The notes: generated by a model from the letters alone, not told the origin. Positions 9,935-52,255 are shown, numbered from the stretch's first letter. The stretch is 64,000 bases of DNA from Alphaproteobacteria bacterium (GCA_045634545.1 JAZRAL010000009.1:6470-70469); one strand, 5' to 3'. A program made the numbers and translations.

Positions 9935-10686
9935 TCATCCCAAACAAACGGGTAAATCTCTTCAAAACCACTATTATGGGTAGCACCTTCTACCACATAA
10001 ACCAAACTATTATCTTTAACAAAATCATACACTAGCGAAGGTGTAATGATTTTATCATTTTCAGCCACATAATGCATCTGTGGTATTTTCATATATTCAT
10101 CTCTATAATCAGCCAAATTCAAAGATTGATTTAGCAATCTAATCTTATGATATTTGCTCCATGCAACATGATCCAAATTTCCACCAATGGTAATTAGTTT
10201 TTTTACATTTAACCCTGTTCTTGCTACACTAACTAATCCAGCTACCTGCGCCCCACCAGAAAAACCAACCAACACAACCTCATTATCATCAGCAATTTCT
10301 TTTATTGCTTCATATGTAGCTCCAATAACTTCCACCGCAAAACGAGCATCAGTCCAATGCCTTTGAGAACACATTTCATCTTTTAAAAATTGACAAGGTC
10401 TTGCAAGATAAATCACATTAGAATTTTTATCACCAAATGCTATTTTTCTAAAAAAACCATTCCTTGGAGTAGGATTATCTGTTGGCATACCATACGCATC
10501 AAAAGAAGCCCCATCCCCCTCTATATAAATCTTAAATTTATCATTGGAGTTTGTAATTTTTTGCCAGCTTGCAAGTTTAAAAGTATTTGTTTTAATTTCT
10601 TTATAAACAAAATCATTTGGGATGACAACACTGTTGCACCCAGATAAAATAAAGCATAAAGCAAAAACAAATACCCTAAAAAACAT
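9931..10686 (-). CDS. Lipoprotein with an alpha/beta-hydrolase fold (putative esterase/lipase)
   Basis: Lipobox ILSGC at the N-terminus. GFSGGAQ is a G-x-S-x-G nucleophile elbow. 251 aa. Confidence 0.55.
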   Translation of the reverse strand: MFFRVFVFALCFILSGCNSVVIPNDFVYKEIKTNTFKLASWQKITNSNDKFKIYIEGDGASFDAYGMPTDNPTPRNGFFRKIAFGDKNSNVIYLARPCQFLKDEMCSQRHWTDARFAVEVIGATYEAIKEIADDNEVVLVGFSGGAQVAGLVSVARTGLNVKKLITIGGNLDHVAWSKYHKIRLLNQSLNLADYRDEYMKIPQMHYVAENDKIITPSLVYDFVKDNSLVYVVEGATHNSGFEEIYPFVWDD

Positions 10687-10729
10687 CTAAAAAAAGCCCC
10701 ACCTTTTAAGCAGGGCTAAATCCTAAAAA

Positions 10730-11038
10730 TTAATTAGCTACAGCGCCTAAATTCTTCAAATTTTGAATAATTGTTTGAGCTGTAGATTGAGATTCCTGAC
10801 TAATACCAGCAGATTCTAATGCTAATTTTTTCAAACAAACACTAACCAATTCATCAGAAGTAGCGCTAATAGATTGTGTAAACAATGTACCTGCTTGAAA
10901 TCTAGAATTTGCTTCACTTATCAAACATGCACGCATTTTTGTTTTTGCAGAAGCATTTGAATCAACTGTTGTATATTGAGATAAATCAGCACAACCACTT
11001 AACAACAAAAAAGCACAAAACAAAGCTTTTTTCATCAT
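10730..11038 (-). CDS. Small lipoprotein, hypothetical
   Basis: The start is probably MMKKALFCAFLLLSGC (lipobox LLSGC), with an RBS taggaga upstream. The longer ORF to 11107 lacks an RBS. Confidence 0.5.
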   Translation of the reverse strand: MMKKALFCAFLLLSGCADLSQYTTVDSNASAKTKMRACLISEANSRFQAGTLFTQSISATSDELVSVCLKKLALESAGISQESQSTAQTIIQNLKNLGAVAN

Positions 11039-11138
11039 ATTTCTCCTAAAAATTTCAACTAATATACACCTATTCCAAAAACAACGAACTGTCAAATTAT
11101 TTAACAAAAAAGCCCCCTTTAAAAGGAGGCTAATTCAG

Positions 11139-11729
11139 TTACCGCTTCAAAATCACATTGGCTCTATAAAATTCATCTATTACATCTTTTTTATAATGAT
11201 GAACCTCGAGAACACCATCAACTTCAGCCCAAAACCAAATCTTAGGCAGAGGAGTATCGCCAATATCAGTTCGCATTTTAGATACAATGTCCCATTTTTT
11301 TCTCAAAACTTTGACATCATTTTTATCAAGAAAACTACCGCAATACTTGTTTTTAAAAGCAATAGCATCTTTAACATCACAACAACTATTTCCTGCTATC
11401 ATACTATGAATAACAAGTGTCGGACTAATTCTATAACCAATTACTCGTCCACAAGATTTGTCATATGTTTCTTTTTCGACACAATTTTCATATACATAGC
11501 GAGGTTTTACATAATCATTCACCATCTTTGGTAAATTTCCTTTCCATACCGGCTCATCACCTAACCCAGAAAAATCACCAAACTGAGGATTTACAGGAAC
11601 GACCTTGTCGTTGCTCTCATGAACACTTTTTTCAATGCCCTTCCATCTCAAATGCGCAATCAAAATTGTCACTAAACAAGCTGATACAAAAAAAATTGCA
11701 CCAACAAAAACTAAATCATAAGCATTCAT
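11139..11729 (-). CDS. Hypothetical membrane-anchored protein, cysteine-containing, 196 aa
   Basis: N-terminal TM helix (LVFVGAIFFVSACLVTILIAHL). No recognisable domain. Confidence 0.45.
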   Translation of the reverse strand: MNAYDLVFVGAIFFVSACLVTILIAHLRWKGIEKSVHESNDKVVPVNPQFGDFSGLGDEPVWKGNLPKMVNDYVKPRYVYENCVEKETYDKSCGRVIGYRISPTLVIHSMIAGNSCCDVKDAIAFKNKYCGSFLDKNDVKVLRKKWDIVSKMRTDIGDTPLPKIWFWAEVDGVLEVHHYKKDVIDEFYRANVILKR

Positions 11730-11855
11730 AATAAAAATTTTTAATTAATAATAATTTTCAAGCAAAGCCAAACATATCTTAAAAAAAATATTTTTCAAGA
11801 ATTATTTATTCTTAAAATTACTAAAGCTTTCTAAAATTATTATCAATTATACAAC

Positions 11856-13028
11856 TTATCTTTGAGGCTGAATATGCTGCATCATTGCCATATTCACGTT
11901 GTTATTTCTTTCTGTTTTTGGATGAATATTTTTTAATTCTTTGTTCAAATCAATAGCCTTGCTATTGCTATTCTCTCCTCGAATATTATCACCCACTTCT
12001 TGCACCTTGTTTTCACCTTTTTTAGTCTCTTGATTAAAGCTAAAATACTTAGTATCTTTATCTTTATTAACCATAAAATCTAATACTCTATCAGCATTTT
12101 CTCTATCTTTTGGAGTAACCAATCTATCTTGAACATCTCTAGGCAAAGTATCTGCTTCTGCCAACATATATATTAATTGTTGAGCATCAACTTTTTCATC
12201 TCTAAAACCGAATTGTTCAGCAAGCTCTTTATCTGCAGTAAAAGCTCTAACAATCAATGCATTTGCATTCTCTCCGTATTTTTGATTAATTTTATCATAC
12301 ATTTCCATTGATTGTTCAAGACCAATAGATAGTCTTGCCCCACCTTCTGGCATTTCGCCTGCCATAGATAACTCTGGATATCTTTCTTGCATAACCCCCA
12401 TAGAAGACACTTGGTTTCTATATTCTTCATATCGACCATCTTGTCTTGCATCATTAAAAAGTTGCTCCTGCGCTTCTCTAGAAATTTCTGGGCCATATGC
12501 TAAAGCCATTGTTATATTTTCAGGTGTCATTTTGTCATCAGATAAACCTAAAGCTCTTCCAAGTTGTTTATCACCAGAAGTAGCTAAATATTCTAAGAAA
12601 TCTCCATAAACATTACCTTGTTGAGCATCATTACTAGCTCCATATCTTTGACTAATTCTATCATGTATCCCTTCTTGTTGAGTTAAACATTCAACAACAG
12701 CCCTTTGAGCACATTCATTTAATGGTACATTACCCTCTAATCTATCACTAACATCATTAAAAGCTTGCGCATCTTCACGCATACTCTCTGCAACATCTTC
12801 TCTTGAGCTATTTTCATTACTAGACGCCACATTCTCTGCAATGTTTCTAACTTCTTCCCAAGTAATAGCAGAATCCTCTCTTAATGTCTCTCTCGTGTTA
12901 TCTTGAACAACTTCAATTCTATCACGATTACCATTATCATCTCTATTATTATTTTCTACAGCTTGAGCATTCATTGATGATGACGACAAAAGTACCGCTA
13001 CAGCCAAAGATTCCCAATTCTTACTCAT
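11856..13028 (-). CDS. Secreted acidic hypothetical protein, 390 aa
   Basis: Signal peptide MSKNWESLAVAVLLSSSSMNAQA. D/E/N/R-rich. No recognisable domain. Confidence 0.5.
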   Translation of the reverse strand: MSKNWESLAVAVLLSSSSMNAQAVENNNRDDNGNRDRIEVVQDNTRETLREDSAITWEEVRNIAENVASSNENSSREDVAESMREDAQAFNDVSDRLEGNVPLNECAQRAVVECLTQQEGIHDRISQRYGASNDAQQGNVYGDFLEYLATSGDKQLGRALGLSDDKMTPENITMALAYGPEISREAQEQLFNDARQDGRYEEYRNQVSSMGVMQERYPELSMAGEMPEGGARLSIGLEQSMEMYDKINQKYGENANALIVRAFTADKELAEQFGFRDEKVDAQQLIYMLAEADTLPRDVQDRLVTPKDRENADRVLDFMVNKDKDTKYFSFNQETKKGENKVQEVGDNIRGENSNSKAIDLNKELKNIHPKTERNNNVNMAMMQHIQPQR

Positions 13029-13090
13029 AACAACCTCAATTCATATTATTATATGAAAAATTATACCCTAAAAAATACTTTTTGTAAACA

Positions 13091-15934
13091 TTAAAATAAC
13101 CATCTAAATCCGCCAGTAACAAGCACACCATCACGACCACCATCTTCAATCATGCTCTGACCATAAACCATAATTTGGTTATTAATATGCCCTTGAATAC
13201 CTAAACCATATTGCTCATAAGGTTTAACATACATACTAGGAAGCTTAACCCCATCAACAGCTGTCTGCCCTCTTTCACCAATATCCCAAACTTTACTTGC
13301 CTCAAAATATGGTTTCCATCCATTGCCTAAATCAAAAATAAATCTAACGCCGGGAGATATCTGAAGAGAATGTATAGCATCATTTTTAATATTTACACCC
13401 AACACATTTTTATAATCTTCAGTATTAATATAAGAATAAGCAAGCATTAACGATGGCTGAATAATAAACTTTCCACTATTAAACTCAAAATTATAACCTG
13501 TTTTATTACCAATACCCGCAAGAAATGTTGAATAATCCTCTTTACCAAAAATACTCTTACTTTCTGTTTCCAAAGCACCTACAGATAATGTTGTAGCACT
13601 AAAGAAATCCCCTCTATAAAATGACAATGTACCACCAATCAAACCACCTTTTTGATGAGCTTCAACACCATCATATTCTTGTGTTGCACCGCTATGACCA
13701 ATATAAGCAGTAAAAGCACCATCTAAACTAGCATTAATTTTTCTAACACCTGTATCATATCCAACAAGAGTACCATATGTCTTATTAGATATCTCTGCTC
13801 CATTTTTAAGAAGAATATCTTCATCAATAACATAAGGTTTTACCCAAACACTTGGTTTATTTTCTTTCATAAATGAAGGTAAAGGCTCTCCTGCGCTCAT
13901 AGATGTTTCATAGCTACTCAAATTATAAGCAAGCAAAATTCTTTCACCCATTGGAATATTCATATAATTATCTAAATTTTGGAAAGAATAATTAAGAGTT
14001 TGGCTTAAAACTCCTGTTGCACCTGCGTTTGTACTAATACCACTACCAACAACTGCTGGATTAAATCCACTCAACCCCTTAGAACCGCTTCCTCTTAAAA
14101 ATTCAAAATATCCCTCATCTCCGTTATTATTATAAGCAATATCATAAACATACAAAGGTGTTACAATTTTTGAAGTTCCTTTATAAACAACACTATCCTT
14201 TAACCCTTTTTCAGCAAACATTATAGATGTTTTGTCTTTTACAGGTTCATTTATCCAATTAAGATTCATAACATTTAATTTTGCATCATTTTCAACAATA
14301 ATTCCATTTTCAGTCTCAAATCTATCCATTACTTCTTTTTCAAAGTCAACCTCACTCACAAAATCAACATCACCACTCAATTTAAGCGAATTAAATTTGT
14401 AAATATGAGCCTTATTATCGTTTGTACTAAGAGTTATATTGCCAAAACCAACATCAGCTTTCCTGATATCATTTAATAAATAAACGTTATTCTTATTATT
14501 ACCAAATATGTTCACCCCATATCCTGTAACACCATCAAAATTATCAGCTAAAACCAAATCACCTGAACCGCTTAAATTAAAATTAAGTATCGCTTCATTA
14601 TTATCAACCCAAAAAGCATTATCATCTTTAACACCTTTAGATATAGTATAGTTATTAGCTACAACCATATCCTTATCTTTAATAACAAAATTTAAATTAC
14701 TATCAGTCCAAACAGCCCCACCTTTAGCTTCACCTTCTTCTGATATTACATAGTTACCATAAAAACTAGCCTCAATTTCATCAATTTCTGCAATATTATA
14801 TAAAGCTCCACCAAAACCATCACCATCTTTTATTTTTACATAATTATTATAAAAATCGCCAACAATAGAACCTATACTATTCGCAAAGGTTGTTCTACCA
14901 TCCGGCTCATTAGAAATTGCACCACCTATAGCTAAATAAGAAATAGAATCAACATAATTACCAATAAAATCACCTGTTATCGTATCAATTCGCCCGCCAT
15001 TATGAATAGCTCCTCCGCTTGCAAAACTAGCACCCAAAGCATAATTACCAATAAAATCACCCTCTAAATCAGTAATCTTACCATTCCAGTTAGTCTCTAT
15101 TGCTCCTCCAATTGCTTCTGCAAAAACAGACTCTGCATAATTTGAAATAAAATTACCTTTAAGTAATTTAATATCTGAACTATTTACAACAAAAATAGCT
15201 CCACCCCAACCAACTGAATTAGTACCTAAAACATAGTTTCCAATAAAATCACCCACTATAGAGTTAGGATTACAAACAGCAACAATAATAGCACCACCAG
15301 CACCCTCACCCTTCTCAGCTATTGCGCTATTATTTATAAAATCTGCATATATATTATCAGCCACACCTCTAACAACAATAGCACCACCCCAGGCTAAATC
15401 TGTTTTGGAATTAACAACACTATTGTTAACAAACATACCTGAAATGTCGCCAACTTTATAACCATAGTTAGTAAAAGCACCTCCAAGTAAGTATTTACCA
15501 TTTGGAGAAGGGGATGATAAATCAGCCCACGTACCACTATAATCAAGAATAGGCGTGTTTTTGTTTGTCGTAACATGAGACTTTAAATCAGAATTTGTAT
15601 ATTTAACTGTAAAAGTAACATTTTGATCTAAGGGAACATTATGCTGATATACTTTTTCTATATCACCAGAACCATAATTAGTTTTACTTATTTCTAATGT
15701 ATAGTTAATTGTTTCAAAAACACCTTTTTCTTTATCATAAATTAAAAAAGGAATACTGCCATTTGAAGAACTATTAGTTTTGGTAAGAGTATAAGCTGAA
15801 GCATTGCCTAATGTTGGGACAAAATCTGATGCATTTGCTGTTCTATAACCTAGTCCAGCATAGGCGCACAAGAGCAGAAACAACATTCTAAATACACTTA
15901 TCTCCCCTCTATATCTCATATAGTTCTCTTTCAA
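13091..15934 (-). CDS. Autotransporter (type Va) outer-membrane protein with a beta-helical passenger domain
   Basis: 947 aa with an N-terminal signal region. The passenger domain carries many G-x-F-I-G-N-Y-x..GGAI(xN) repeats (pectate-lyase-like beta-helix). The C-terminal roughly 280 aa form a beta-barrel ending GGFRWLF, with aromatic residues at the C-terminus. Confidence 0.8.
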   Translation of the reverse strand: MKENYMRYRGEISVFRMLFLLLCAYAGLGYRTANASDFVPTLGNASAYTLTKTNSSSNGSIPFLIYDKEKGVFETINYTLEISKTNYGSGDIEKVYQHNVPLDQNVTFTVKYTNSDLKSHVTTNKNTPILDYSGTWADLSSPSPNGKYLLGGAFTNYGYKVGDISGMFVNNSVVNSKTDLAWGGAIVVRGVADNIYADFINNSAIAEKGEGAGGAIIVAVCNPNSIVGDFIGNYVLGTNSVGWGGAIFVVNSSDIKLLKGNFISNYAESVFAEAIGGAIETNWNGKITDLEGDFIGNYALGASFASGGAIHNGGRIDTITGDFIGNYVDSISYLAIGGAISNEPDGRTTFANSIGSIVGDFYNNYVKIKDGDGFGGALYNIAEIDEIEASFYGNYVISEEGEAKGGAVWTDSNLNFVIKDKDMVVANNYTISKGVKDDNAFWVDNNEAILNFNLSGSGDLVLADNFDGVTGYGVNIFGNNKNNVYLLNDIRKADVGFGNITLSTNDNKAHIYKFNSLKLSGDVDFVSEVDFEKEVMDRFETENGIIVENDAKLNVMNLNWINEPVKDKTSIMFAEKGLKDSVVYKGTSKIVTPLYVYDIAYNNNGDEGYFEFLRGSGSKGLSGFNPAVVGSGISTNAGATGVLSQTLNYSFQNLDNYMNIPMGERILLAYNLSSYETSMSAGEPLPSFMKENKPSVWVKPYVIDEDILLKNGAEISNKTYGTLVGYDTGVRKINASLDGAFTAYIGHSGATQEYDGVEAHQKGGLIGGTLSFYRGDFFSATTLSVGALETESKSIFGKEDYSTFLAGIGNKTGYNFEFNSGKFIIQPSLMLAYSYINTEDYKNVLGVNIKNDAIHSLQISPGVRFIFDLGNGWKPYFEASKVWDIGERGQTAVDGVKLPSMYVKPYEQYGLGIQGHINNQIMVYGQSMIEDGGRDGVLVTGGFRWLF

Positions 15935-44543: not shown

Positions 44544-45032
44544 ATGCGTATATTAGGCCTAGACCCAAGTATATCATCAACAGGTTGGGGCATAATAAAT
44601 GTTGAACAAAACCGTTTGTCATACGTGGCAGACGGTTTTATTCCAACATCAAACAAATTACCATTATCAGAGCGCTTGCATATTATACATAACGAACTCC
44701 AAAAAGTTATAGAACAATACCGCCCTGATGAAGCATCTATCGAGGTTACATTCTTAAACTCAAACCCCGAAACATCATTAAAATTAAGCATGGCACGAGG
44801 TGTTGTTTTCCTAATGCCTTCTCTTTATAATATTCCACTTTATGAATACGAGCCAAATAAGGTAAAAAAAGCTCTAACCGGCGTAGGAAGAGCAGATAAA
44901 AACCAAGTAGAAACAATGGTAAAAATATTGCTACCTGGATGTAAACCAAAAAACAACGACTCATCAGATGCACTAGCAATCGCCATCACCCACGCAAACC
45001 TAAGAAATTCTTTCAATTCAAAAATAGCTTAA
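44544..45032 (+). CDS. ruvC: Holliday junction resolvase RuvC
   Basis: 162 aa. N-terminus ILGLDPSISSTGWGII has the catalytic Asp. Sits immediately after yebC, the conserved order. Confidence 0.85.
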   Translation: MRILGLDPSISSTGWGIINVEQNRLSYVADGFIPTSNKLPLSERLHIIHNELQKVIEQYRPDEASIEVTFLNSNPETSLKLSMARGVVFLMPSLYNIPLYEYEPNKVKKALTGVGRADKNQVETMVKILLPGCKPKNNDSSDALAIAITHANLRNSFNSKIA

Positions 45033-45056
45033 AAAAAAGGGTTACCCCCCTCCTTC

Positions 45057-46055
45057 TTACATATCCATCCCTCCGGTAGTATGAGAATGCCATGCCATTT
45101 CATATTGATACCCTGCATCATCATTTTCTTTTTCAAAGGATTTATCTTTAGATTTACTTTTCTCTATTCTTTCTTGCTCTTTCTTCCAGCCACGACTCCT
45201 TACTCTAGCCATTGATTTATGAGCTTCATGAACACCATCTTTTTCATTAACTTTATCACAAAACTCTATTGCTTTTCCTATCATTTCTGTTCCACTACCT
45301 TCAACCATATTAACAGTTTTATTAACTAGCTCACTACACTTTCCCGCCATTTCAGGATGATTTTGCACAATTTGAGTATAGGCATCAATTAACCCTGTAT
45401 CATACTCATATACACTCTGATTATTTTCTTCCATTTTATTTAGCATTTTTTCTGTATAAGCACAAAATCTCTCAGCCACCTTTTTATCATCTAAGCAAGT
45501 TGCAGCATTACTAAAAGCTATATCAGGATATTGGGTGTGCATAGCCAAATCATCAACATTATCCAACATAACCAACGCTTCTTTGGGTGTTAACTTTCCA
45601 TTATCAGCAGCAAAAGCATATGCAGTACATAAACATCCTGCAAATGTCTCTTTCTGTTCCTTTGTTCCATTTTCTAAAATTGATGTATCTTTCATAAGGT
45701 TATTAGCAATATTGTAAACTTCTTTTCCGTCTGCTTTTTCACTCAAATCAGCTAACTTATCTGCCATTAAAGCCTGTGCATCATAGTTTGCAAAACCTTT
45801 ATCATTTCTAGCATTATAATTATTAACCGCATCACGCATATTTTTCATATCATCAATGCCATCAATATACTTAATATCTTTGTTTTGCTTTTTTGCCTCT
45901 GCTTGCTTTTTTAAGCTATCTAATTGTGCTAAAACATCTTCACTACCACCTAATGCACTAGCTAATCCAATACCTAAATTAACAATCTTATCAACTTCCA
46001 TATCGCTTAAATTTTTCTCTGCTAATTTAGCAATCAAATCATCAAAAGCGCTCAT
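45057..46055 (-). CDS. Hypothetical protein without a signal peptide, 332 aa
   Basis: No recognisable domain. Acidic, with a Lys-rich region near the C-terminus (KKEQERIEKSKSKDKSFEKEND). Divergently oriented to an XRE regulator. Confidence 0.45.
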   Translation of the reverse strand: MSAFDDLIAKLAEKNLSDMEVDKIVNLGIGLASALGGSEDVLAQLDSLKKQAEAKKQNKDIKYIDGIDDMKNMRDAVNNYNARNDKGFANYDAQALMADKLADLSEKADGKEVYNIANNLMKDTSILENGTKEQKETFAGCLCTAYAFAADNGKLTPKEALVMLDNVDDLAMHTQYPDIAFSNAATCLDDKKVAERFCAYTEKMLNKMEENNQSVYEYDTGLIDAYTQIVQNHPEMAGKCSELVNKTVNMVEGSGTEMIGKAIEFCDKVNEKDGVHEAHKSMARVRSRGWKKEQERIEKSKSKDKSFEKENDDAGYQYEMAWHSHTTGGMDM

Positions 46056-46175
46056 CTCTCATCTCCTATAAAATAAAACTATATTATTATAATATCATAA
46101 ATGTTGGATATAGTCAACACATGATTTCATAAATAAATTATAATACCCTCAAACAAATTTTAATAAGGGTATATA

Positions 46176-46394
46176 TTGCAAAACAGACTCTTAACCATAG
46201 GCAAAAATATTCAAAACCAACGCAAAAAACAAAATTTAACACAAATAGAGCTTGCTGTTGAGGTTGGAATAGATAGAGCATATTTATCAGAGATAGAAAA
46301 CGGCAAAGCAAATATCTCTGTAAATATATTATATGCAATTGCAGATGCTCTGCACACTGATATAAAAGATTTTTTTAATACAAATCAATCATAA
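46176..46394 (+). CDS. XRE-family helix-turn-helix transcriptional regulator
   Basis: 72 aa. LTQIELAVEVGIDRAYLSEIENGKANISVNILYAIADAL is a canonical HTH_XRE (Cro/C1-type) motif. Confidence 0.75.
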   Translation: MQNRLLTIGKNIQNQRKKQNLTQIELAVEVGIDRAYLSEIENGKANISVNILYAIADALHTDIKDFFNTNQS

Positions 46395-46440
46395 AAAAGG
46401 AGGCTTCTCGCCCCCTCTTTCTTCTTAAATCAAATCTTTA

Positions 46441-47112
46441 TTACATATCAGCAATAACTTCCATGCTAACAATTACATCTGGGTCATAAACCATACCATT
46501 ATAACCACCGCCTTTTTTGATATTGTCAACATATTCCATACCGCTAACAACTTTACCCCAAACAGTATATTGACCATCCAAATGAGGTGCATCATTAAAA
46601 CAAATAAAGAATTGACTATCCGCAGAGTTAGGGTCCATAGCTCTAGCCATAGAAACCGTACCACGAGTATGAGGAACTCTATTAAATTCTGCTTTTAGTT
46701 TTTTACCACTACCACCAGTACCTGTTCCTAAAGGACAACCTGTTTGCGCCATAAAACCATCAATAACTCTATGGAACTTCAAACCATTGTAAAAACCTTC
46801 TCTAACCAATTCTTTAATTCTAGCAACATGGTTTGGTGCAACATCTGGAAGCATCTCAATAACCACTTCACCATCTTTAAGCTTCAAAACCAAAGCATTT
46901 TCTTGATCTTTAACATTATAAGAATGTTTCATTTTCTTTCCTCTCGTTTCACTAATTTCTAGTTTTTTTGTTTCTTCAATACCAATACTTTTAGTATCGC
47001 TTTTATCTAAACTTTTTGTTTCACTTTTAGCTAATACATTTCCCATCATAAAACCCTTTACAACTAAAACTAATATTAAAACTAAAACTATATTTAGGAA
47101 TTTATTTTTCAT
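46441..47112 (-). CDS. ppiB: Cyclophilin-type peptidyl-prolyl cis-trans isomerase, secreted/periplasmic
   Basis: 223 aa with a signal peptide. FHRVIDGFMAQTGCP and the SMAR..NSADSQFFI motif are present. Overlaps the RimK-like gene by 11 nt. Confidence 0.85.
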   Translation of the reverse strand: MKNKFLNIVLVLILVLVVKGFMMGNVLAKSETKSLDKSDTKSIGIEETKKLEISETRGKKMKHSYNVKDQENALVLKLKDGEVVIEMLPDVAPNHVARIKELVREGFYNGLKFHRVIDGFMAQTGCPLGTGTGGSGKKLKAEFNRVPHTRGTVSMARAMDPNSADSQFFICFNDAPHLDGQYTVWGKVVSGMEYVDNIKKGGGYNGMVYDPDVIVSMEVIADM

Positions 47113-48046
47113 AATTCAATACCCAATCAATTCGTTCTTCAGCAGTTAAACCCTGAGGAAAAGAATCAATAGCTTTTAATCTATCTCTTAACCCCACACC
47201 ATTTGCTATCTGTATAGCAAGCCCAGGTCTTGCATTTACTTCAAGCATCATAGGACCTCGTTCTTTATCAAGCACAATATCTGCGCCCAAATAACCAAGC
47301 CCTGTCATATCATAAGCCATAGCACCAATAAGCAAATGCTCCCTCCAAAAAGGAACTTTCAAATCCATAAGATTAGCCCCCGTATCTGGATGATGAGTTA
47401 CTTGTTTATTATGCATAACCGCATTTAGTGTTCTACCTGTTTTTACATCAAGCCCCACACCAACAGCGCCTTGGTGGAGATTTGCTCTTCCTCCAGACTC
47501 TTTTGTTGCCAATCTCATCATCACCATTGCAGGGTATCCTTTATAAACAATCACCCTAACATCAGGCACTCCGTGGTAGCTAAAATCTTTAAATACTTTA
47601 CTAAAATTAACTGTTTCCTCAATTAATGTTACATCATATTTTCCACCAAGACTAAAAAGCCCACTTAATGTATTAGAAATATGCTGATAAACATCATCAA
47701 ACGAAAGCACCTCACCAGAAGCATTAATAAACTCATTTTCGTTATATTCTTTTATAACCAAAACACCTTTGCCACCGCTACCATGCGCAGGTTTAATTAC
47801 AAACGTTTTATGCCCTTTAACAATCTCTAAAAGATTTTTAACCTCATATTGGTGTTCAATAATACCAATCATTTTCGGAGTATTAATATTAATACTATTA
47901 GCCAATCTTTTAGTTTTAACTTTATCATCAACAAGGGTATATAAAGAGCGTTTATTCTGCTTAGAAATCACGTCATAATTACGCTCATTCATTCCAAGCA
48001 CACCTTTTTCTTTAAGTTTTTTTGCTGTATTAAACCAACTAAACAT
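47102..48046 (-). CDS. Alpha-L-glutamate ligase-related protein (RimK-like ATP-grasp)
   Basis: 314 aa. The GMNERN motif near the N-terminus and ATP-grasp motifs (KPAHGSGGKGV; MLEVNARPG) are present. Confidence 0.85.
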   Translation of the reverse strand: MFSWFNTAKKLKEKGVLGMNERNYDVISKQNKRSLYTLVDDKVKTKRLANSININTPKMIGIIEHQYEVKNLLEIVKGHKTFVIKPAHGSGGKGVLVIKEYNENEFINASGEVLSFDDVYQHISNTLSGLFSLGGKYDVTLIEETVNFSKVFKDFSYHGVPDVRVIVYKGYPAMVMMRLATKESGGRANLHQGAVGVGLDVKTGRTLNAVMHNKQVTHHPDTGANLMDLKVPFWREHLLIGAMAYDMTGLGYLGADIVLDKERGPMMLEVNARPGLAIQIANGVGLRDRLKAIDSFPQGLTAEERIDWVLNYEK

Positions 48047-48047
48047 A

Positions 48048-49592
48048 CTACTTTTCCTTGTTTACCAAAGGTGCAAAACGCATCAACTCAGTTAATCTAT
48101 AACCAGTATAAGTACCAAGCAACATCACAATAAACATGATAACCAAGTTAAACTCATTAAATGCAAACATTACATGGTGAACATATTCACTACTAATTAC
48201 AACATAGGTCATCATCGCTGTAATCATTGTGTTAAAAATCTCTTTCAATGTATTTTTAGCCCCTTCTTCTTCCCAAGTAATAGAAGCTCTTTCAATAATC
48301 CATGCTGTAATAATTATTGGGAAAAAGATTGCAGAACTAATAATTTCATAATCTAGCCTATAACCAATAACGGTCAAAACTTGAATTAACAAAATAACAA
48401 ATATAACTACAAACGAAATTCTAGGAACAAGCAACAAATTAAGCTTAGCAACCAATGTTCTCATTAAAAGGCCTAAAAATATCATTATAGAAAAACAAAC
48501 AAGCCCTGGAACAAAACCAGTTTTTACCAAAGACATAGCAACAAGCATCGGTGTAAAGGTTCCCATAGTAGAAACACCAATCACGTTACGCATAATCACC
48601 ACCATCAAAATAGCAAGAGGAAAAATCATCAACCACTTCAAAGTATTTTGTTCCAAAACAGGAAGAGAATAGATACTATATTTATAAGGTACAAGCAAAG
48701 CACTATCTTTTGCTCTAAATTCAGCCATTTTCAAAGGTGTTGCAACAGACTTTAATACAGAGAACATAACTTTAGATTTTTCACCACCATAAACATCAAG
48801 CAAAGCCACTCCACCACGCTGAAAAACAACCCAATTCTCTGGCAAACCAATGTTTGCAGTATTCAAATCATATAAAATCCACTTATTATTAAAATAAGCC
48901 TCAAGCATAATATCTGGTTTATCTGTTTTTTTACCTTCTTCAAGCTTAATAGCTCTAACCAAACGAGCAGGAATTCTCTTATAAGACAATATATGAACAA
49001 TCTTTTCAGCAAATTCTTTTGGAGTATAATTTAATGGCAACACCAAACTCATTGTAGGGTTTGCCATTTCTTGATTTACTGTTTTAATAACTTTTTGAAC
49101 TTTATCACCTTTTTGTAATTCAGTAAGCTCCCAAATCTTTTTCATTTGAATTTTTTCATCATCATTTAAGATTGGTCTAGCAACCTTTTGAGGAGCCAAA
49201 ACGCCTTTTGCCTCCTTTTTATAGTCATCATAAATGTTCATACGATAATAAAGATTTTGTTTTCCGTTTTTATTTTTACCTTTAAAAACAATTACATTAT
49301 TCTTTTTGTCTTGAGTAAATTCATACCCATTTGCAACAATTTCTTCACTTAAAATCTCAAAATTATCATTATTAGTAGGAATACCAAGAACAGCCTCAAC
49401 ATCACCACCTAAAGCCTTAAAAGAAACTTTAGCATCAATAGTCCAAATATCTGTAACATCTTTAGGAGACATACTAAAATCCCAATACTTTATCTTGTAA
49501 TAACAACACATCCCCGCATACCACAAAGATAAAATAAGCAAATAACTTAAAACACATCTAACGCTAAAAAATTTCTTAAAAAATAGTCTCAT
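48048..49592 (-). CDS. 7TM membrane protein with an inactive transglutaminase-like N-terminal domain (RimK-system partner)
   Basis: 514 aa. The N-terminal roughly 300-aa extracytoplasmic domain is followed by about 7 TM helices in the C-terminal 200 aa. Sits between the retropepsin-like protease and RimK-like ligase genes. Confidence 0.65.
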   Translation of the reverse strand: MRLFFKKFFSVRCVLSYLLILSLWYAGMCCYYKIKYWDFSMSPKDVTDIWTIDAKVSFKALGGDVEAVLGIPTNNDNFEILSEEIVANGYEFTQDKKNNVIVFKGKNKNGKQNLYYRMNIYDDYKKEAKGVLAPQKVARPILNDDEKIQMKKIWELTELQKGDKVQKVIKTVNQEMANPTMSLVLPLNYTPKEFAEKIVHILSYKRIPARLVRAIKLEEGKKTDKPDIMLEAYFNNKWILYDLNTANIGLPENWVVFQRGGVALLDVYGGEKSKVMFSVLKSVATPLKMAEFRAKDSALLVPYKYSIYSLPVLEQNTLKWLMIFPLAILMVVIMRNVIGVSTMGTFTPMLVAMSLVKTGFVPGLVCFSIMIFLGLLMRTLVAKLNLLLVPRISFVVIFVILLIQVLTVIGYRLDYEIISSAIFFPIIITAWIIERASITWEEEGAKNTLKEIFNTMITAMMTYVVISSEYVHHVMFAFNEFNLVIMFIVMLLGTYTGYRLTELMRFAPLVNKEK

Positions 49593-49608
49593 TATTTTAT
49601 GTCCAAAA

Positions 49609-50142
49609 TTAATTCAAAGTATAAGAAGTAGATGTATCAACAATATATCTACCTGTTAAAATATTACGACCAATCAAACCTTGGTAGTCAAATTGCTCTC
49701 TATCTGCAATAGAAAATACAGCGCTAAAAACTTCTTTTCCCATCTTCACATCCATTTTTACCGCTTTTCTACGTTCATCTTCTCCAGCTCTTCTAACCTT
49801 AAAAGAACGCTCTACTTTTTTCTCAAAAACATGCTCTTCACCAGTTTTTCTGTTTTTAAGCTTAAAAGTAACCCATCTTTCGCCATCTCGCTCAAAATAC
49901 TCTACATCTTTACAATCAAGAGATGATGTAGTAGCGCCAGTATCAATTCTAGCTAAAAAAGGAGATTTCATTGGTAAAAAATAAATAGGCTCAACTTCAC
50001 CAATAATTGGCAAATGAGCCTTTTCAACAACGATTTCTTGTTTTGTTGTATTTACATTATGAACAACAGCTGGAACAATCACTTGCTTTGCTTGACAACC
50101 TGAAACAAGCAATGCGAGCAACACTAGATAGAATTTATGCAT
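49609..50142 (-). CDS. Retropepsin-like aspartic peptidase lipoprotein (DUF785, annotated as ATP-dependent zinc protease family)
   Basis: 177 aa. Lipobox LLVSGC. ARIDTGATTS carries the D-T-G-A aspartic-protease signature. Confidence 0.75.
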   Translation of the reverse strand: MHKFYLVLLALLVSGCQAKQVIVPAVVHNVNTTKQEIVVEKAHLPIIGEVEPIYFLPMKSPFLARIDTGATTSSLDCKDVEYFERDGERWVTFKLKNRKTGEEHVFEKKVERSFKVRRAGEDERRKAVKMDVKMGKEVFSAVFSIADREQFDYQGLIGRNILTGRYIVDTSTSYTLN

Positions 50143-50273
50143 TATTAAAAAACCTTCTTATTGTATGTTAACATTTCTTCAAAAGATAACTTCTTTTTAT
50201 ATAACAAACACCAATAAAATCAAACTAATGCACAAAGTTTTTTCTTTTTTTTGAATAATTATTTTTATACACT

Positions 50274-50317
50274 GTATTTAAACCATGTATTTAAATGTGA
50301 TTAACAATGTATTTAAA
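50274..50317. promoter_or_regulatory. Three direct repeats of TGTATTTAAA (spacings 13 and 21 bp), 130-175 bp upstream of the protease/7TM/RimK operon
   Basis: actgtatttaaaccatgtatttaaatgtgattaacaatgtatttaaaaca. The same decamer recurs at 60944-60953, 62016-62025 and 62029-62038, upstream of the two OMP cassette genes. Confidence 0.4.
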
Positions 50318-51458
50318 ACATTACTGTTGCTCTTATACTTGTTGCAAATCCATAATCAGATTTTTGATTAAGTGCAGGATTTATATATAATTGCACATCT
50401 GGTGTAATTGTTAGCATATCACCAATCCCCCAAGCCCAATAAGCTTCAATAACTTGTTCTGCTTTATGTTTAAGTTTTTCACCAACAGCCTTTTCATCTA
50501 ACTTATTATATGCATATGCAAGCCCAATTTGGTCCAATTCATTTCGTCCTAAAGGATTATTATACACTCCACCTAAAACCCAAGATTGGCGAATTTCCTC
50601 CACATCACCGCTTGTTTCATTAATTCTTGCAAATAGACTTAGTTTTTCACCAATATCTTGAGATAAATTAAGCGACCAACCATTTGTTGTTTGTCGTTGT
50701 TCCTTTACCCAAGGTTGATTATATACAAGTAAAGAAATTTCAGCATCACCTAAATTTTTGATTGTAGGAGTATACCCCACATATCCAAATGTTGTATAAT
50801 GCTTATCTCCCAAACTATTAAATCTTACACTCTGCGCATCAATATTTGTTCCATCTTGTCCACCAAATGCAAGTGTCCAATCATCATTTGGATTAAACTG
50901 CATATACATACCAATTCCCGCTTGCGTATATGATGCAGATGCATTTTGAGCCAAAGCTTCATTCAAAAAATTAACCTGCTGATTAGCATCATAATCTGTG
51001 CCGTCAAAATTATATATTGGAAACTGACCAACACCAACAGTCAGCCAATTCCATTTTCCACCAAATTGAAAAGTATAATATAATTCATTAAACTCATTTG
51101 TTTTATCATCATAGTCATTTATTGGCGTAACAAACCCAGAATTATTTGCTAAATCATTTGCATTATGATTACCATATCTAATCACTGTATATGCAAAATT
51201 AAGCATACCTGTCCCATATTTATTATCATTTAGCGTCCACTGAAAACTAGGATATAAATACCCTTGAACAGCGTTATTTTTCCCATTAGGACTAGTTCTT
51301 TGCTCCAAAATAGATAAATCAATACTATAATCTAACCCATACTTTTTATTAACCATGTTTTTAAAGTTCTGATAATCACTTTCTAGCCCTTGAGCTCTTG
51401 CATTTCCATACAAAAAGCTACCCATTAATCCCAATAAAAGAACATTATAAAACTTCAT
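50313..51458 (-). CDS. Outer-membrane porin (beta-barrel), family uncertain
   Basis: 381 aa. Signal peptide ..GSFLYGNARAQ. Amphipathic beta-strands throughout. C-terminus ..SIRATVMF with a terminal Phe. Confidence 0.6.
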   Translation of the reverse strand: MKFYNVLLLGLMGSFLYGNARAQGLESDYQNFKNMVNKKYGLDYSIDLSILEQRTSPNGKNNAVQGYLYPSFQWTLNDNKYGTGMLNFAYTVIRYGNHNANDLANNSGFVTPINDYDDKTNEFNELYYTFQFGGKWNWLTVGVGQFPIYNFDGTDYDANQQVNFLNEALAQNASASYTQAGIGMYMQFNPNDDWTLAFGGQDGTNIDAQSVRFNSLGDKHYTTFGYVGYTPTIKNLGDAEISLLVYNQPWVKEQRQTTNGWSLNLSQDIGEKLSLFARINETSGDVEEIRQSWVLGGVYNNPLGRNELDQIGLAYAYNKLDEKAVGEKLKHKAEQVIEAYWAWGIGDMLTITPDVQLYINPALNQKSDYGFATSIRATVMF

Positions 51459-51595
51459 ATTATTAATCCTTTAAACTAATTAAACATCATTTTTGATATA
51501 TATTTAAAAAGCACGAAAAAAAGGGGGTATAGAAAAAAAGCTCTTGAAACCAAACATAAAACCTTTTAAGATACAAAAAAACAAAAGGGAAACAT

Positions 51596-52255
51596 ATGAT
51601 AGCAAAACTCAAAGGAATTATAGAAAATATTGGTGAAGACTGTTGCATTATAGATGTCAACGGAGTTGGTTATTTAGTAAACATGTCATCACGCTCATTA
51701 TCAAAATTACATCAAGGAGAACATGCCTCTCTTTTAATCGAAACAGTTATAAAAGAAGATAGCATTACTCTTTTTGGTTTCCAATCACCTTGGGAAAAAG
51801 AATGGTTTAATACTTTAACTAAAATACAAGGCGTTGGCGGAAAAGTTTGCTTAAGCATCCTATCTGTTCTATCACCAGCAGAGCTATCACAAGCAGTTTC
51901 AGCACAAGATAAAACTTTATTCTTAAGAGCAAATGGTGTTGGCCCTAAACTTGCCGCAAGATTGATAACTGAACTAAAAGACAAAATAGTTACAATTCCA
52001 ACAGAATATCTTGCTTCAAAAGATTTAAACACTGTTATAAATGAAGATACAAAACAAACCACATCTTACCAAACACCAAAACAAGAAGAAAATGATAACA
52101 CTTATAAAGCAACCGAAGATGTTACATCAGCATTATCAAATCTTGGCTATCAAAAAATAGATGCCTACAGAGTAGCATCAGAAGTGTGCCTTAAAAATCC
52201 AGATAAAGATTTAGCGACATTAATTAGGTTAGCATTAAAAGAATTTAATCAATAG
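51596..52255 (+). CDS. ruvA: Holliday junction DNA helicase RuvA
   Basis: 219 aa. N-terminus [25 protein letters not shown] is the RuvA signature. Confidence 0.9.

Follow-up and report, generated by a model that had tools for sequence, protein, structure and literature searches.

The retropepsin-like osmotic-stress-tolerance (Rlo) system was described in Pseudomonas aeruginosa PA14, where the rloABC operon (rloB, PA14_41710; rloC, PA14_41730) encodes the secreted retropepsin-like protease RloA, the inner-membrane protein RloB, in which an inactive transglutaminase is joined to seven transmembrane (TM) helices, and RloC, an ATP-grasp protein of the cytoplasm (Lormand et al., mBio 2025; PMC12239564). 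Structures of RloA have been solved, the protease cuts runs of at least eight glutamates in vitro, and its poly-glutamate-coordinating basic residues are K46, R114, and R137 (PMC12239564). When all three RloA paralogues are lost, P. aeruginosa no longer grows in hypo-osmotic medium and shows impaired β-lactam resistance, biofilm formation, and cell shape, and the defects of RloA loss are suppressed by deletion of rloB or rloC; the physiological substrate of RloA, the product of RloC, and the mechanism of RloB are still open (PMC12239564). The triad had first been predicted by comparative genomics (Iyer et al., 2009, as cited in PMC12239564). Here, we describe a locus within a 64-kb stretch of DNA (the window; GC content about 33%) from an alphaproteobacterium of gut or rumen, uncultured and low in GC, in which such a triad is flanked by genes for a cyclophilin-type peptidyl-prolyl isomerase (cyp) and for an outer-membrane porin. 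The names of the NCBIfam models matched by its first two proteins, RloA and RloB, led to the work in P. aeruginosa.

Other systems show partial likeness to Rlo. In the RimABK (RimB-RimK) system of Pseudomonas fluorescens, an ATP-grasp glutamate ligase and a poly-glutamate-trimming retropepsin-like protease, both cytoplasmic and working without a membrane component, add a tail to ribosomal protein S6 (RpsF) and remove it again (PMC4741518, PMC7343187, PMC11957791). Orthologues of rloABC in Vibrio cholerae are under the control of the envelope-stress two-component system VxrAB, through VxrB (PMC12239564). In Shewanella, disruption of hm2192, which encodes an inactive transglutaminase fused to a 7TM domain, alters the output of membrane vesicles (PMC12096838).

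The triad in the window is rloABC and hence a system that is already known, as identified by Pfam and NCBIfam assignments, the alignment of RloA, the architecture of RloB, the profile of RloC, and the A-B-C order with tight gaps. What is new is that a cyclophilin gene and a porin gene are attached to the rlo operon over about 70 related species, making the locus a clade-specific variant. On balance, we favour reading it as an rloABC orthologue extended by two clade-specific companions, for which a scheme of synthesis, presentation, and trimming can be proposed. The genes rloA (49609–50142; 177 amino acids, aa), rloB (48048–49592; 514 aa), and rloC (47102–48046; 314 aa) lie on the minus strand, separated by gaps of 16 and 1 nt (medians over 80 related loci, 18 and 1 nt), and are followed on the same strand by cyp, whose longest open reading frame (ORF) spans 46441–47112 (223 aa). 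A listing of minus-strand ORFs reproduces these four genes at exactly the coordinates given by an earlier annotation that a model had made from the DNA alone (hereafter, the sequence-only reading), and its domain calls, retropepsin-like, transglutaminase-like 7TM, RimK-like ATP-grasp, and cyclophilin, were all upheld by Pfam and NCBIfam searches. That reading was also correct in equating the triad with a system predicted by comparative genomics; its statement that neither substrate nor role had been established still holds for the substrate, and is outdated for the role by Lormand et al. (2025; PMC12239564).

RloA matches PF05618 (5e-29), and its top NCBIfam model is the retropepsin-like aspartic peptidase RloA3 (1e-30). 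It carries a DTGA motif at residues 67–70, with catalytic D67, and a retropepsin-type LIGRN at residues 156–160. The motif aligns with the DTGA of Protein Data Bank (PDB) entries 9g59, 9g58, and 2pma, adjacent basic residues also being kept; we take 9g59 and 9g58 to be crystal structures of RloA type. Lysine or arginine positions of these two structures are matched by R65, which precedes the catalytic aspartate by two positions, and by R124/R125 and R148, although the correspondence to the P. aeruginosa numbering is inferred only. Of 78 unique RloA orthologues, 77 share the invariant DTGA, and the one that does not is a truncated fragment. The N-terminus, MHKFYLVLLALLVSGC, includes the lipobox LVSGC (Cys16); a strict lipobox pattern fits 58 of the 78 orthologues and nearly all others possess a similar hydrophobic stretch followed by a cysteine. 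RloA is therefore predicted to be exported as a lipoprotein, in contrast to the cytoplasmic RimB.

RloB matches PF14400 (1e-25), PF14402 (2e-75), and the NCBIfam RloB model (6.5e-81). Its AlphaFold model (predicted local distance difference test, pLDDT, 81.8) bears out the large extracytoplasmic domain and the seven TM helices of the sequence-only reading, the latter being C-terminal, and adds one N-terminal TM helix; between this helix and the 7TM domain lies a periplasmic part consisting of a β-rich and a transglutaminase-like domain. In a Foldseek search with the model, the best match of the periplasmic part was 3isr, a transglutaminase-like fold (E-value 5e-9), whereas the 7TM part matched nothing of solved structure. 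Within residues 38–305, no cysteine or histidine of the periplasmic domain is conserved at 70% or more, and this transglutaminase-like domain, devoid of a catalytic triad, is consistent with the label 'inactive'. RloC belongs to the 'alpha-L-glutamate ligase-like' family TIGR02291 (425.3 bits versus a cutoff of 314.2) and matches PF14397 (7e-88). A profile search with RloC orthologues placed RimK first (5zct and 4iwx, 3e-7; RimK of Pseudomonas, 7qys), followed by TTLL7 and cyanophycin synthetase, all of them enzymes that ligate acidic amino acids onto peptides.

Compared with rloABC of P. aeruginosa, the same three domain architectures occur in the same order with close spacing, RloA combines a signal sequence with the DTGA motif and with what may be the corresponding basic residues beside it, RloB joins an inactive transglutaminase to a 7TM domain, and RloC is a cytoplasmic ATP-grasp protein. 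The differences concern the host, a gut alphaproteobacterium, whereas the operon is described as widespread in Gammaproteobacteria (PMC12239564), the predicted lipoprotein nature of RloA, the appended cyclophilin gene, and the porin gene conserved upstream. To the RloB proteins of the gammaproteobacteria Aeromonas and Legionella, RloB shows an identity of about 31–32%, Pseudomonas not being among the sequences compared. No paralogous rloA2 or rloA3 was seen within the window, and the words 'cyclophilin' and 'prolyl' occur nowhere in the Pseudomonas rlo paper (PMC12239564).

With RimB-RimK, the locus shares the relationship to an ATP-grasp glutamate ligase, the retropepsin-like protease, and the logic of a tail added and then removed; it differs in a protease that is predicted to be exported and lipidated, in the interposed RloB, and in an RloC that falls below the RimK family cutoff. 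Like the VxrAB-controlled operon of V. cholerae, the operon here seems to have transcriptional control of its own that is linked to envelope functions; the upstream motif TTTAAATACA, mostly repeated with a 13-nt period, is not known to belong to any regulator. The product of Shewanella hm2192 carries the same annotation as RloB and its disruption again has an envelope phenotype; there, an RloB-type gene alone was studied, and the available part of the report mentions no cyclophilin or porin link (PMC12096838). A conceptual analogue for RloB together with RloC can be seen in a polymer-forming enzyme complex. The poly-γ-glutamate synthetase PgsBCA/CapBCA is membrane-associated and both makes and externalizes a glutamate polymer. 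However, PgsB is Mur-ligase-like whereas RloC is an ATP-grasp protein, and there is no detectable homology between RloB and PgsC: a resemblance of the RloB 7TM domain to PgsC/CapC (PF14102), an idea suggested by GxxP-type motifs, was rejected with an E-value of 0.33 for a single sequence against the profile, and with an E-value of 0.36 and a probability of 0.16% when hhalign compared the RloB profile with 18 authentic PgsC/CapC sequences.

A scan of a genome collection with RloB provided 80 loci, one per species, with RloB identities ranging from 94% (metagenome-assembled genome SIG44, SUUK01000002.1) to 51%. With the exception of a few whose titles are generic or evidently mislabelled, they bear the label of uncultured Alphaproteobacteria, and the stated sources are human or animal gut, rumen, and faeces; the RloB family overall comprises 1,653 clusters at 50% identity. 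Synteny mapping by tblastn of these 80 loci shows that the order porin-rloA-rloB-rloC-cyclophilin is held throughout the clade while the flanks change, ruvAB on one side and ruvC-yebC on the other being retained in closer relatives only. Linkage of the cyclophilin gene, which the sequence-only reading had noted in this locus, is kept in the relatives: in 76 loci the sequence continues beyond rloC, and of these, 71 have the gene within 117 nt of rloC and four at 0.45–2.8 kb. In locus L038, one of these four, a phage-tail-fibre-like insertion (10640–13130) separates the two genes and cyp is still the next conserved gene, and a single locus (L033) is devoid of a cyclophilin gene, with an assembly gap at that spot. 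The porin gene is found upstream of rloA in 67 loci, directly adjacent in 47 (63–314 nt) and split off by an ORF on the opposite strand in 20. A systematic count yielded no sixth conserved gene, any flanking ORF being common to at most 35 of the 80 loci.

Outside the clade, ten rlo loci are informative, eight from metagenomic or genomic RloB relatives (about 30–50% identity) and those of Aeromonas caviae and Legionella adelaidensis. The triad is present in all ten, in one of them in the order B-C-A, and neither a cyclophilin nor a porin gene stands beside it in any of them. Such an order, rloB-rloC-rloA, is that of the distant rlo locus L140 (4001–7293), so the A-B-C order is not universal in the rlo family. 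The position behind rloC is taken on the same strand by a GNAT acetyltransferase gene, 11 nt downstream, in L087 (7497–7955) and L088 (2529–2987; RloB identity 50%), and by a gene for a Polysacc_synt-family flippase, 24 nt downstream, in L084–L086 (8543–9880; RloB identity 38%); the slot seems to collect lineage-specific accessory genes.

The cyclophilin itself matches PF00160 (5.5e-44; 150.6 bits versus a cutoff of 21.7), its nearest solved structure is 2mvz (4e-31), the catalytic FHRVIxGFMAQ segment is conserved, and FHRVIDGFMAQTG is invariant over the orthologues. To the PpiA and PpiB equivalogs it scores 83 versus cutoffs of about 300. All orthologues possess, before the catalytic domain, a tail of about 45 residues rich in lysine, serine, threonine, and glutamate, in which positions L6, T11, K16, T19, K20, K28, S33, R36, K38, K39, and Y44 of the alignment are conserved and which can be described as a triple [E]-T-K-x-[L/I] repeat with S-x-x-R-x-K-K behind it. 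A search with the tail alone retrieved six fragments only. As for the other end of the protein, the idea of a glutamate-rich acceptor like that of RpsF was discarded, as the C-terminus is hydrophobic (...VIADL/M).

Between rloC and cyp, most of the loci examined (L001–L080) contain a yCCTAAATA motif 2–10 nt past the rloC stop codon; in the window, this conserved TTCCTAAATA element occupies 47091–47100 on the minus strand, 2 nt past the stop codon. In many loci it folds with the Shine-Dalgarno sequence of cyp, the duplex having −6.5 kcal/mol compared to −4.3 kcal/mol for shuffled sequence, and the element may pair with that Shine-Dalgarno sequence. An anti-Shine-Dalgarno hairpin was not demonstrated, as own partners (−6.5 kcal/mol) hardly differ from partners swapped between loci (−6.3 kcal/mol; p = 0.19) and covariation was not shown.

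A possible, if doubtful, alternative is that the cyclophilin is a housekeeping cytoplasmic peptidyl-prolyl isomerase of the PpiB kind, which rides as a passenger at the end of the rlo operon by inherited gene order. The catalytic core is indeed that of an ordinary cyclophilin, with a mean column identity of 77% as in a housekeeping enzyme, beyond this clade the rlo operon functions in the absence of a cyclophilin, sister lineages hold the acetyltransferase or flippase gene in the same slot, and no second cyclophilin was seen in the 64-kb window. However, a passenger fits less well with the adjacency of rloC and cyp, which has outlasted rearrangement of both flanks over about 70 species and in L038 even a phage-like insertion, with the conserved element in the short spacer, and with the odd conserved tail, which suggests a specialized role. 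We prefer to regard the cyclophilin as a companion of the rlo genes.

Where this companion acts depends on its start codon. About 66 orthologues are about 201 aa long, begin with M-[S/T]-x-[V/L]-L-x-K-S-E-T-K, and possess neither a hydrophobic segment nor a signal peptide; they start 40–57 nt past the rloC stop codon behind a strong Shine-Dalgarno sequence of AGGAG type. In the window, the corresponding internal ATG (47049/47046; about 202 aa) is kept together with a Shine-Dalgarno sequence of its own, AAAGGG (47059–47054), which in the long frame is read as 'KG', and this ATG is likely the ancestral start of the cyclophilin. The upstream ATG at 47112 overlaps rloC by 11 nt and adds 22 residues, MKNKFLNIVLVLILVLVVKGFM, that resemble a Sec signal. 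This extension, which spans the ancestral Shine-Dalgarno sequence, is confined to the window and eight close variants (loci L001, L002, L008, L014, L015, L020, L025, and L136); a metagenome scan for further extension junctions gave three true junctions, of which one was new. Hence, the 11-nt overlap reported by the sequence-only reading is real for the longest ORF and is not the conserved arrangement, which is the 40–57-nt spacer. Since most orthologues are without a signal peptide, the ancestral and prevalent state of the cyclophilin is judged from the sequences to be cytoplasmic, an exported form being possible for the subclade of the window only. The description of the enzyme as a 'secreted cyclophilin' is doubtful, resting on a Sec-like extension in nine sequences against some 66 orthologues without a signal peptide.

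A reading in which translation starts at 47112 and the cyclophilin is exported, acting in the periplasm with RloA and the periplasmic domain of RloB, is unlikely in our view. The extension does look Sec-like, consisting of MKNK, a 14-residue hydrophobic core, and VLA followed by K. None of the nine distinct sequences of the subclade interrupts the frame, T tends to be retained in the second position of codons (9/3/7 variable sites in positions 1, 2, and 3), and an ATG overlapping the rloC stop codon would permit translational coupling. But orthologues from the rest of the clade are without the extension, the window retains the internal ATG and its Shine-Dalgarno sequence within the supposed signal peptide, no clear Shine-Dalgarno sequence precedes 47112, and T-rich spacer DNA yields hydrophobic residues by default. 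Coding-type evolution of the 22 codons was not accepted, the 9/3/7 distribution being suggestive and not significant (p of about 0.2, chi-square). The signal peptide of the subclade was perhaps born from the intergenic spacer through a new ATG in the 3' end of rloC (47047–47112), and dual initiation, with the old Shine-Dalgarno sequence and ATG retained, is conceivable.

That the triad is not an envelope system at all, but one of RimK/RimB type for glutamylation of ribosomal protein S6, is highly improbable, since the distant relationship of RloC to RimK and of RloA to RimB (3.8e-15 with the NCBIfam RimB model) is outweighed by RloC passing TIGR02291 and missing both RimK models (TIGR00768, 40.6 versus a cutoff of 143.4; NF007764 (PRK10446), 22.7 versus 331), by a lipoprotein signal on essentially all RloA orthologues that argues against a cytoplasmic protease, by the membrane protein RloB encoded between RloA and RloC, and by the finding that rimB and rloA of Pseudomonas show no genetic interaction (PMC12239564).

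The rlo operon extended by cyp seems to be transcribed as a unit with its own control region. Directly after the cyp stop codon, a hairpin at 46393–46421 on the minus strand, identified by RNA folding as the intrinsic terminator ending the operon, has a stability of −17.8 kcal/mol (z = −4.0; none of 200 shuffles as stable) and the sequence GAAAGAGGGGGC-GAGAA-GCCUCCUUUUUU; it is shared with a convergent XRE-family gene (46176–46394). No convincing terminator was found inside the operon and none between rloC and cyp; a terminator-like match inside rloC (47356–47338) is devoid of a T-rich tail, lies in a conserved coding region, and was dismissed as a false positive. Given that the only strong terminator stands behind cyp, with none in the rloC-cyp spacer, and that the linkage holds in 71 of 76 loci, the cyclophilin gene is most likely on the same transcript as rloC, which agrees with the proposal of the sequence-only reading.

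Upstream of rloA, a promoter-like site read by eye (50196–50223, minus strand) consists of a −35 element TTGATT (50223–50218), a 16-nt spacer, and a −10 element TATAAA (50201–50196); it is missing from a consensus promoter scan, which accepts only −10 hexamers that end in T (position 6). Judged by position and sequence, it would be the promoter of the rlo operon. The repeats TTTAAATACA lie 50–95 nt upstream of the −35 element and form an array (50273–50317, minus strand) that is a candidate regulator-binding site. Here, too, the sequence-only reading was confirmed, since the triple site that it had placed upstream of the operon consists of three exact copies of TGTATTTAAA at 50273, 50286, and 50308, between the porin stop codon and rloA; in the gene-strand reading, TTTAAATACA, the starts are 13 and 22 nt apart, and the stop codon of the porin gene is overlapped by the first of the three. 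The whole window contains six exact TGTATTTAAA copies in three clusters compared to about one expected by chance. Two or three copies of TTTAAATACA, mostly with a 13-nt period, lie upstream of rloA in loci L001–L028 and L040, so that no member of the closer subclade (RloB identity of at least 67%) is without the array, which is absent from the distant subclade. Over the loci with the array, with 51 copies in 9.3 kb of DNA upstream of rloA versus 18 in 450 kb elsewhere, the motif is enriched 137-fold.

Elsewhere in the window, one or two copies of TTTAAATACA head a promoter-like module of about 110 nt that occurs twice on the minus strand (60850–60960 and 61925–62040), carries TTGACA and TTGAAA-N17-TGGTATAGT elements, and precedes two paralogous genes for outer-membrane β-barrel proteins with near-identical signal peptides (61046–61759 and 59684–60685). 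Judging from the shared motif, these modules and the rlo operon probably belong to the same regulon. The same motif at the rlo operon and at two promoters of outer-membrane protein genes suggests that one regulator serves several envelope genes, recalling the control of the Vibrio rlo operon by VxrB.

The second companion, the porin gene (50313–51458, minus strand; 381 aa with a signal peptide), was missed by the sequence-only reading. The protein matches PF04966 (9e-16; 58.6 bits versus a cutoff of 22.9) and the NCBIfam AaxA model (7e-83), in the latter case with 279 bits versus an equivalog cutoff of 600. These scores would place it in the OprB family of porins, as a relative of AaxA rather than AaxA proper. 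The porin gene is probably a transcription unit separate from the rlo operon. The opposite-strand ORF between porin and rloA in the distant subclade (loci L029, L034, L046, L047, L050, L051, L059–L062, L064, L067, L068, L070, L072, L073, and L078–L080) mostly encodes about 300–350 aa, and up to about 510 aa in three cases, with a basic N-terminus; two copies are found in L046 and L051.

For the favoured reading of an rloABC orthologue with two companions, a working scheme can be drawn, in which the steps from RloC to RloA are taken by homology from the work in P. aeruginosa. Transcription would proceed from the promoter behind the conserved TTTAAATACA array through rloA, rloB, rloC, and cyp to the strong terminator. 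Cytoplasmic RloC, which among solved structures comes closest to the glutamate ligase RimK, would build a glutamate-type peptide or tail. RloB, with its eight helices in the inner membrane and its catalytically dead, transglutaminase-like periplasmic domain, would pass this product on or present it at the periplasmic face, where the lipoprotein retropepsin RloA would trim it. If trimming failed, the product of RloB and RloC would harm the envelope, and a harmful untrimmed product is the proposed reason why loss of rloB or rloC suppresses loss of rloA in Pseudomonas. The cyclophilin might be a dedicated accessory of the cytoplasmic half, that is of RloC or of the cytoplasmic face of RloB, possibly binding the acidic product via its basic, lysine- and threonine-rich tail, and the OprB/AaxA-like porin might perhaps provide an outer-membrane passage for substrate or product.

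Several points weigh against this reading. The NCBIfam scores of RloA (106.6 versus a cutoff of 210 for the RloA3 model) and RloB (272.5 versus 900) stay far under the strict curated cutoffs; as the RloA1/2/3 and RloB models are narrow, of equivalog or exception type, and built around Pseudomonas proteins, such scores would indicate a distant orthologue and do not exclude membership. The chain of synthesis, export, and trimming is a model and not a result, because the product of RloC and a transport role of RloB are known in no organism. Co-transcription is deduced from sequence features, pairing of the post-rloC element with the cyclophilin Shine-Dalgarno sequence is without covariation, and the gene linkage could reflect inherited gene order in small genomes, the more so as the core is that of an ordinary cyclophilin. 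In addition, the opposite-strand gene between porin and rloA puts the porin outside the operon in the 20 loci concerned.

A more far-reaching version of the favoured reading, to which we give only a slim chance, would join all parts into a five-part trans-envelope Rlo module, in which the tailed cyclophilin would be the dedicated cytoplasmic partner of RloC or RloB, its tail binding the acidic product or being itself modified, and the porin would be the outer-membrane conduit; the signal peptide of the subclade would have been newly gained from the rloC-cyp spacer, moving the enzyme to the periplasm or targeting it to both compartments.

The surroundings of the locus are variable on the cyp side. 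The stretch between cyp and ruvC (45057–46394 in the window) contains the XRE-family helix-turn-helix gene (46176–46394, plus strand), matched in L001 and L015 only, and a gene for a 332-aa protein without a family match (45057–46055), matched in L001, L014, L015, and L020 only. Together with the phage-like insert of L038, the region between cyp or rloC and ruvC has the look of a hotspot for insertions. In the segment 62043–63702, which immediately precedes the first promoter module of the outer-membrane protein genes, a gene for an MltA-type lytic transglycosylase (62539–63702, minus strand) overlaps an Smr-domain gene (62043–62546, minus strand), so that envelope functions abound in this part of the window. 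The GC skew is negative in nearly all 2-kb bins of the 64 kb (cumulative value −7.7), which is consistent with the window lying on a single replichore. An Rfam scan of 45000–52000 gave no matches.

In P. aeruginosa, Rlo affects osmotic tolerance, β-lactam sensitivity, biofilm formation, and cell shape. The present locus shows that rlo is a stable feature of abundant uncultured Alphaproteobacteria of gut and rumen, and the two companion genes kept over about 70 species, encoding the tailed cyclophilin and the porin, are candidate partners of the system. The conserved TTTAAATACA array is a cis-element that could lead to the regulator of rlo. If any part of the five-part module were to prove true, it would offer a first handle on what RloB and RloC make. 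The cyclophilin- and porin-linked form of the operon is a useful lead on the biochemistry of rlo.

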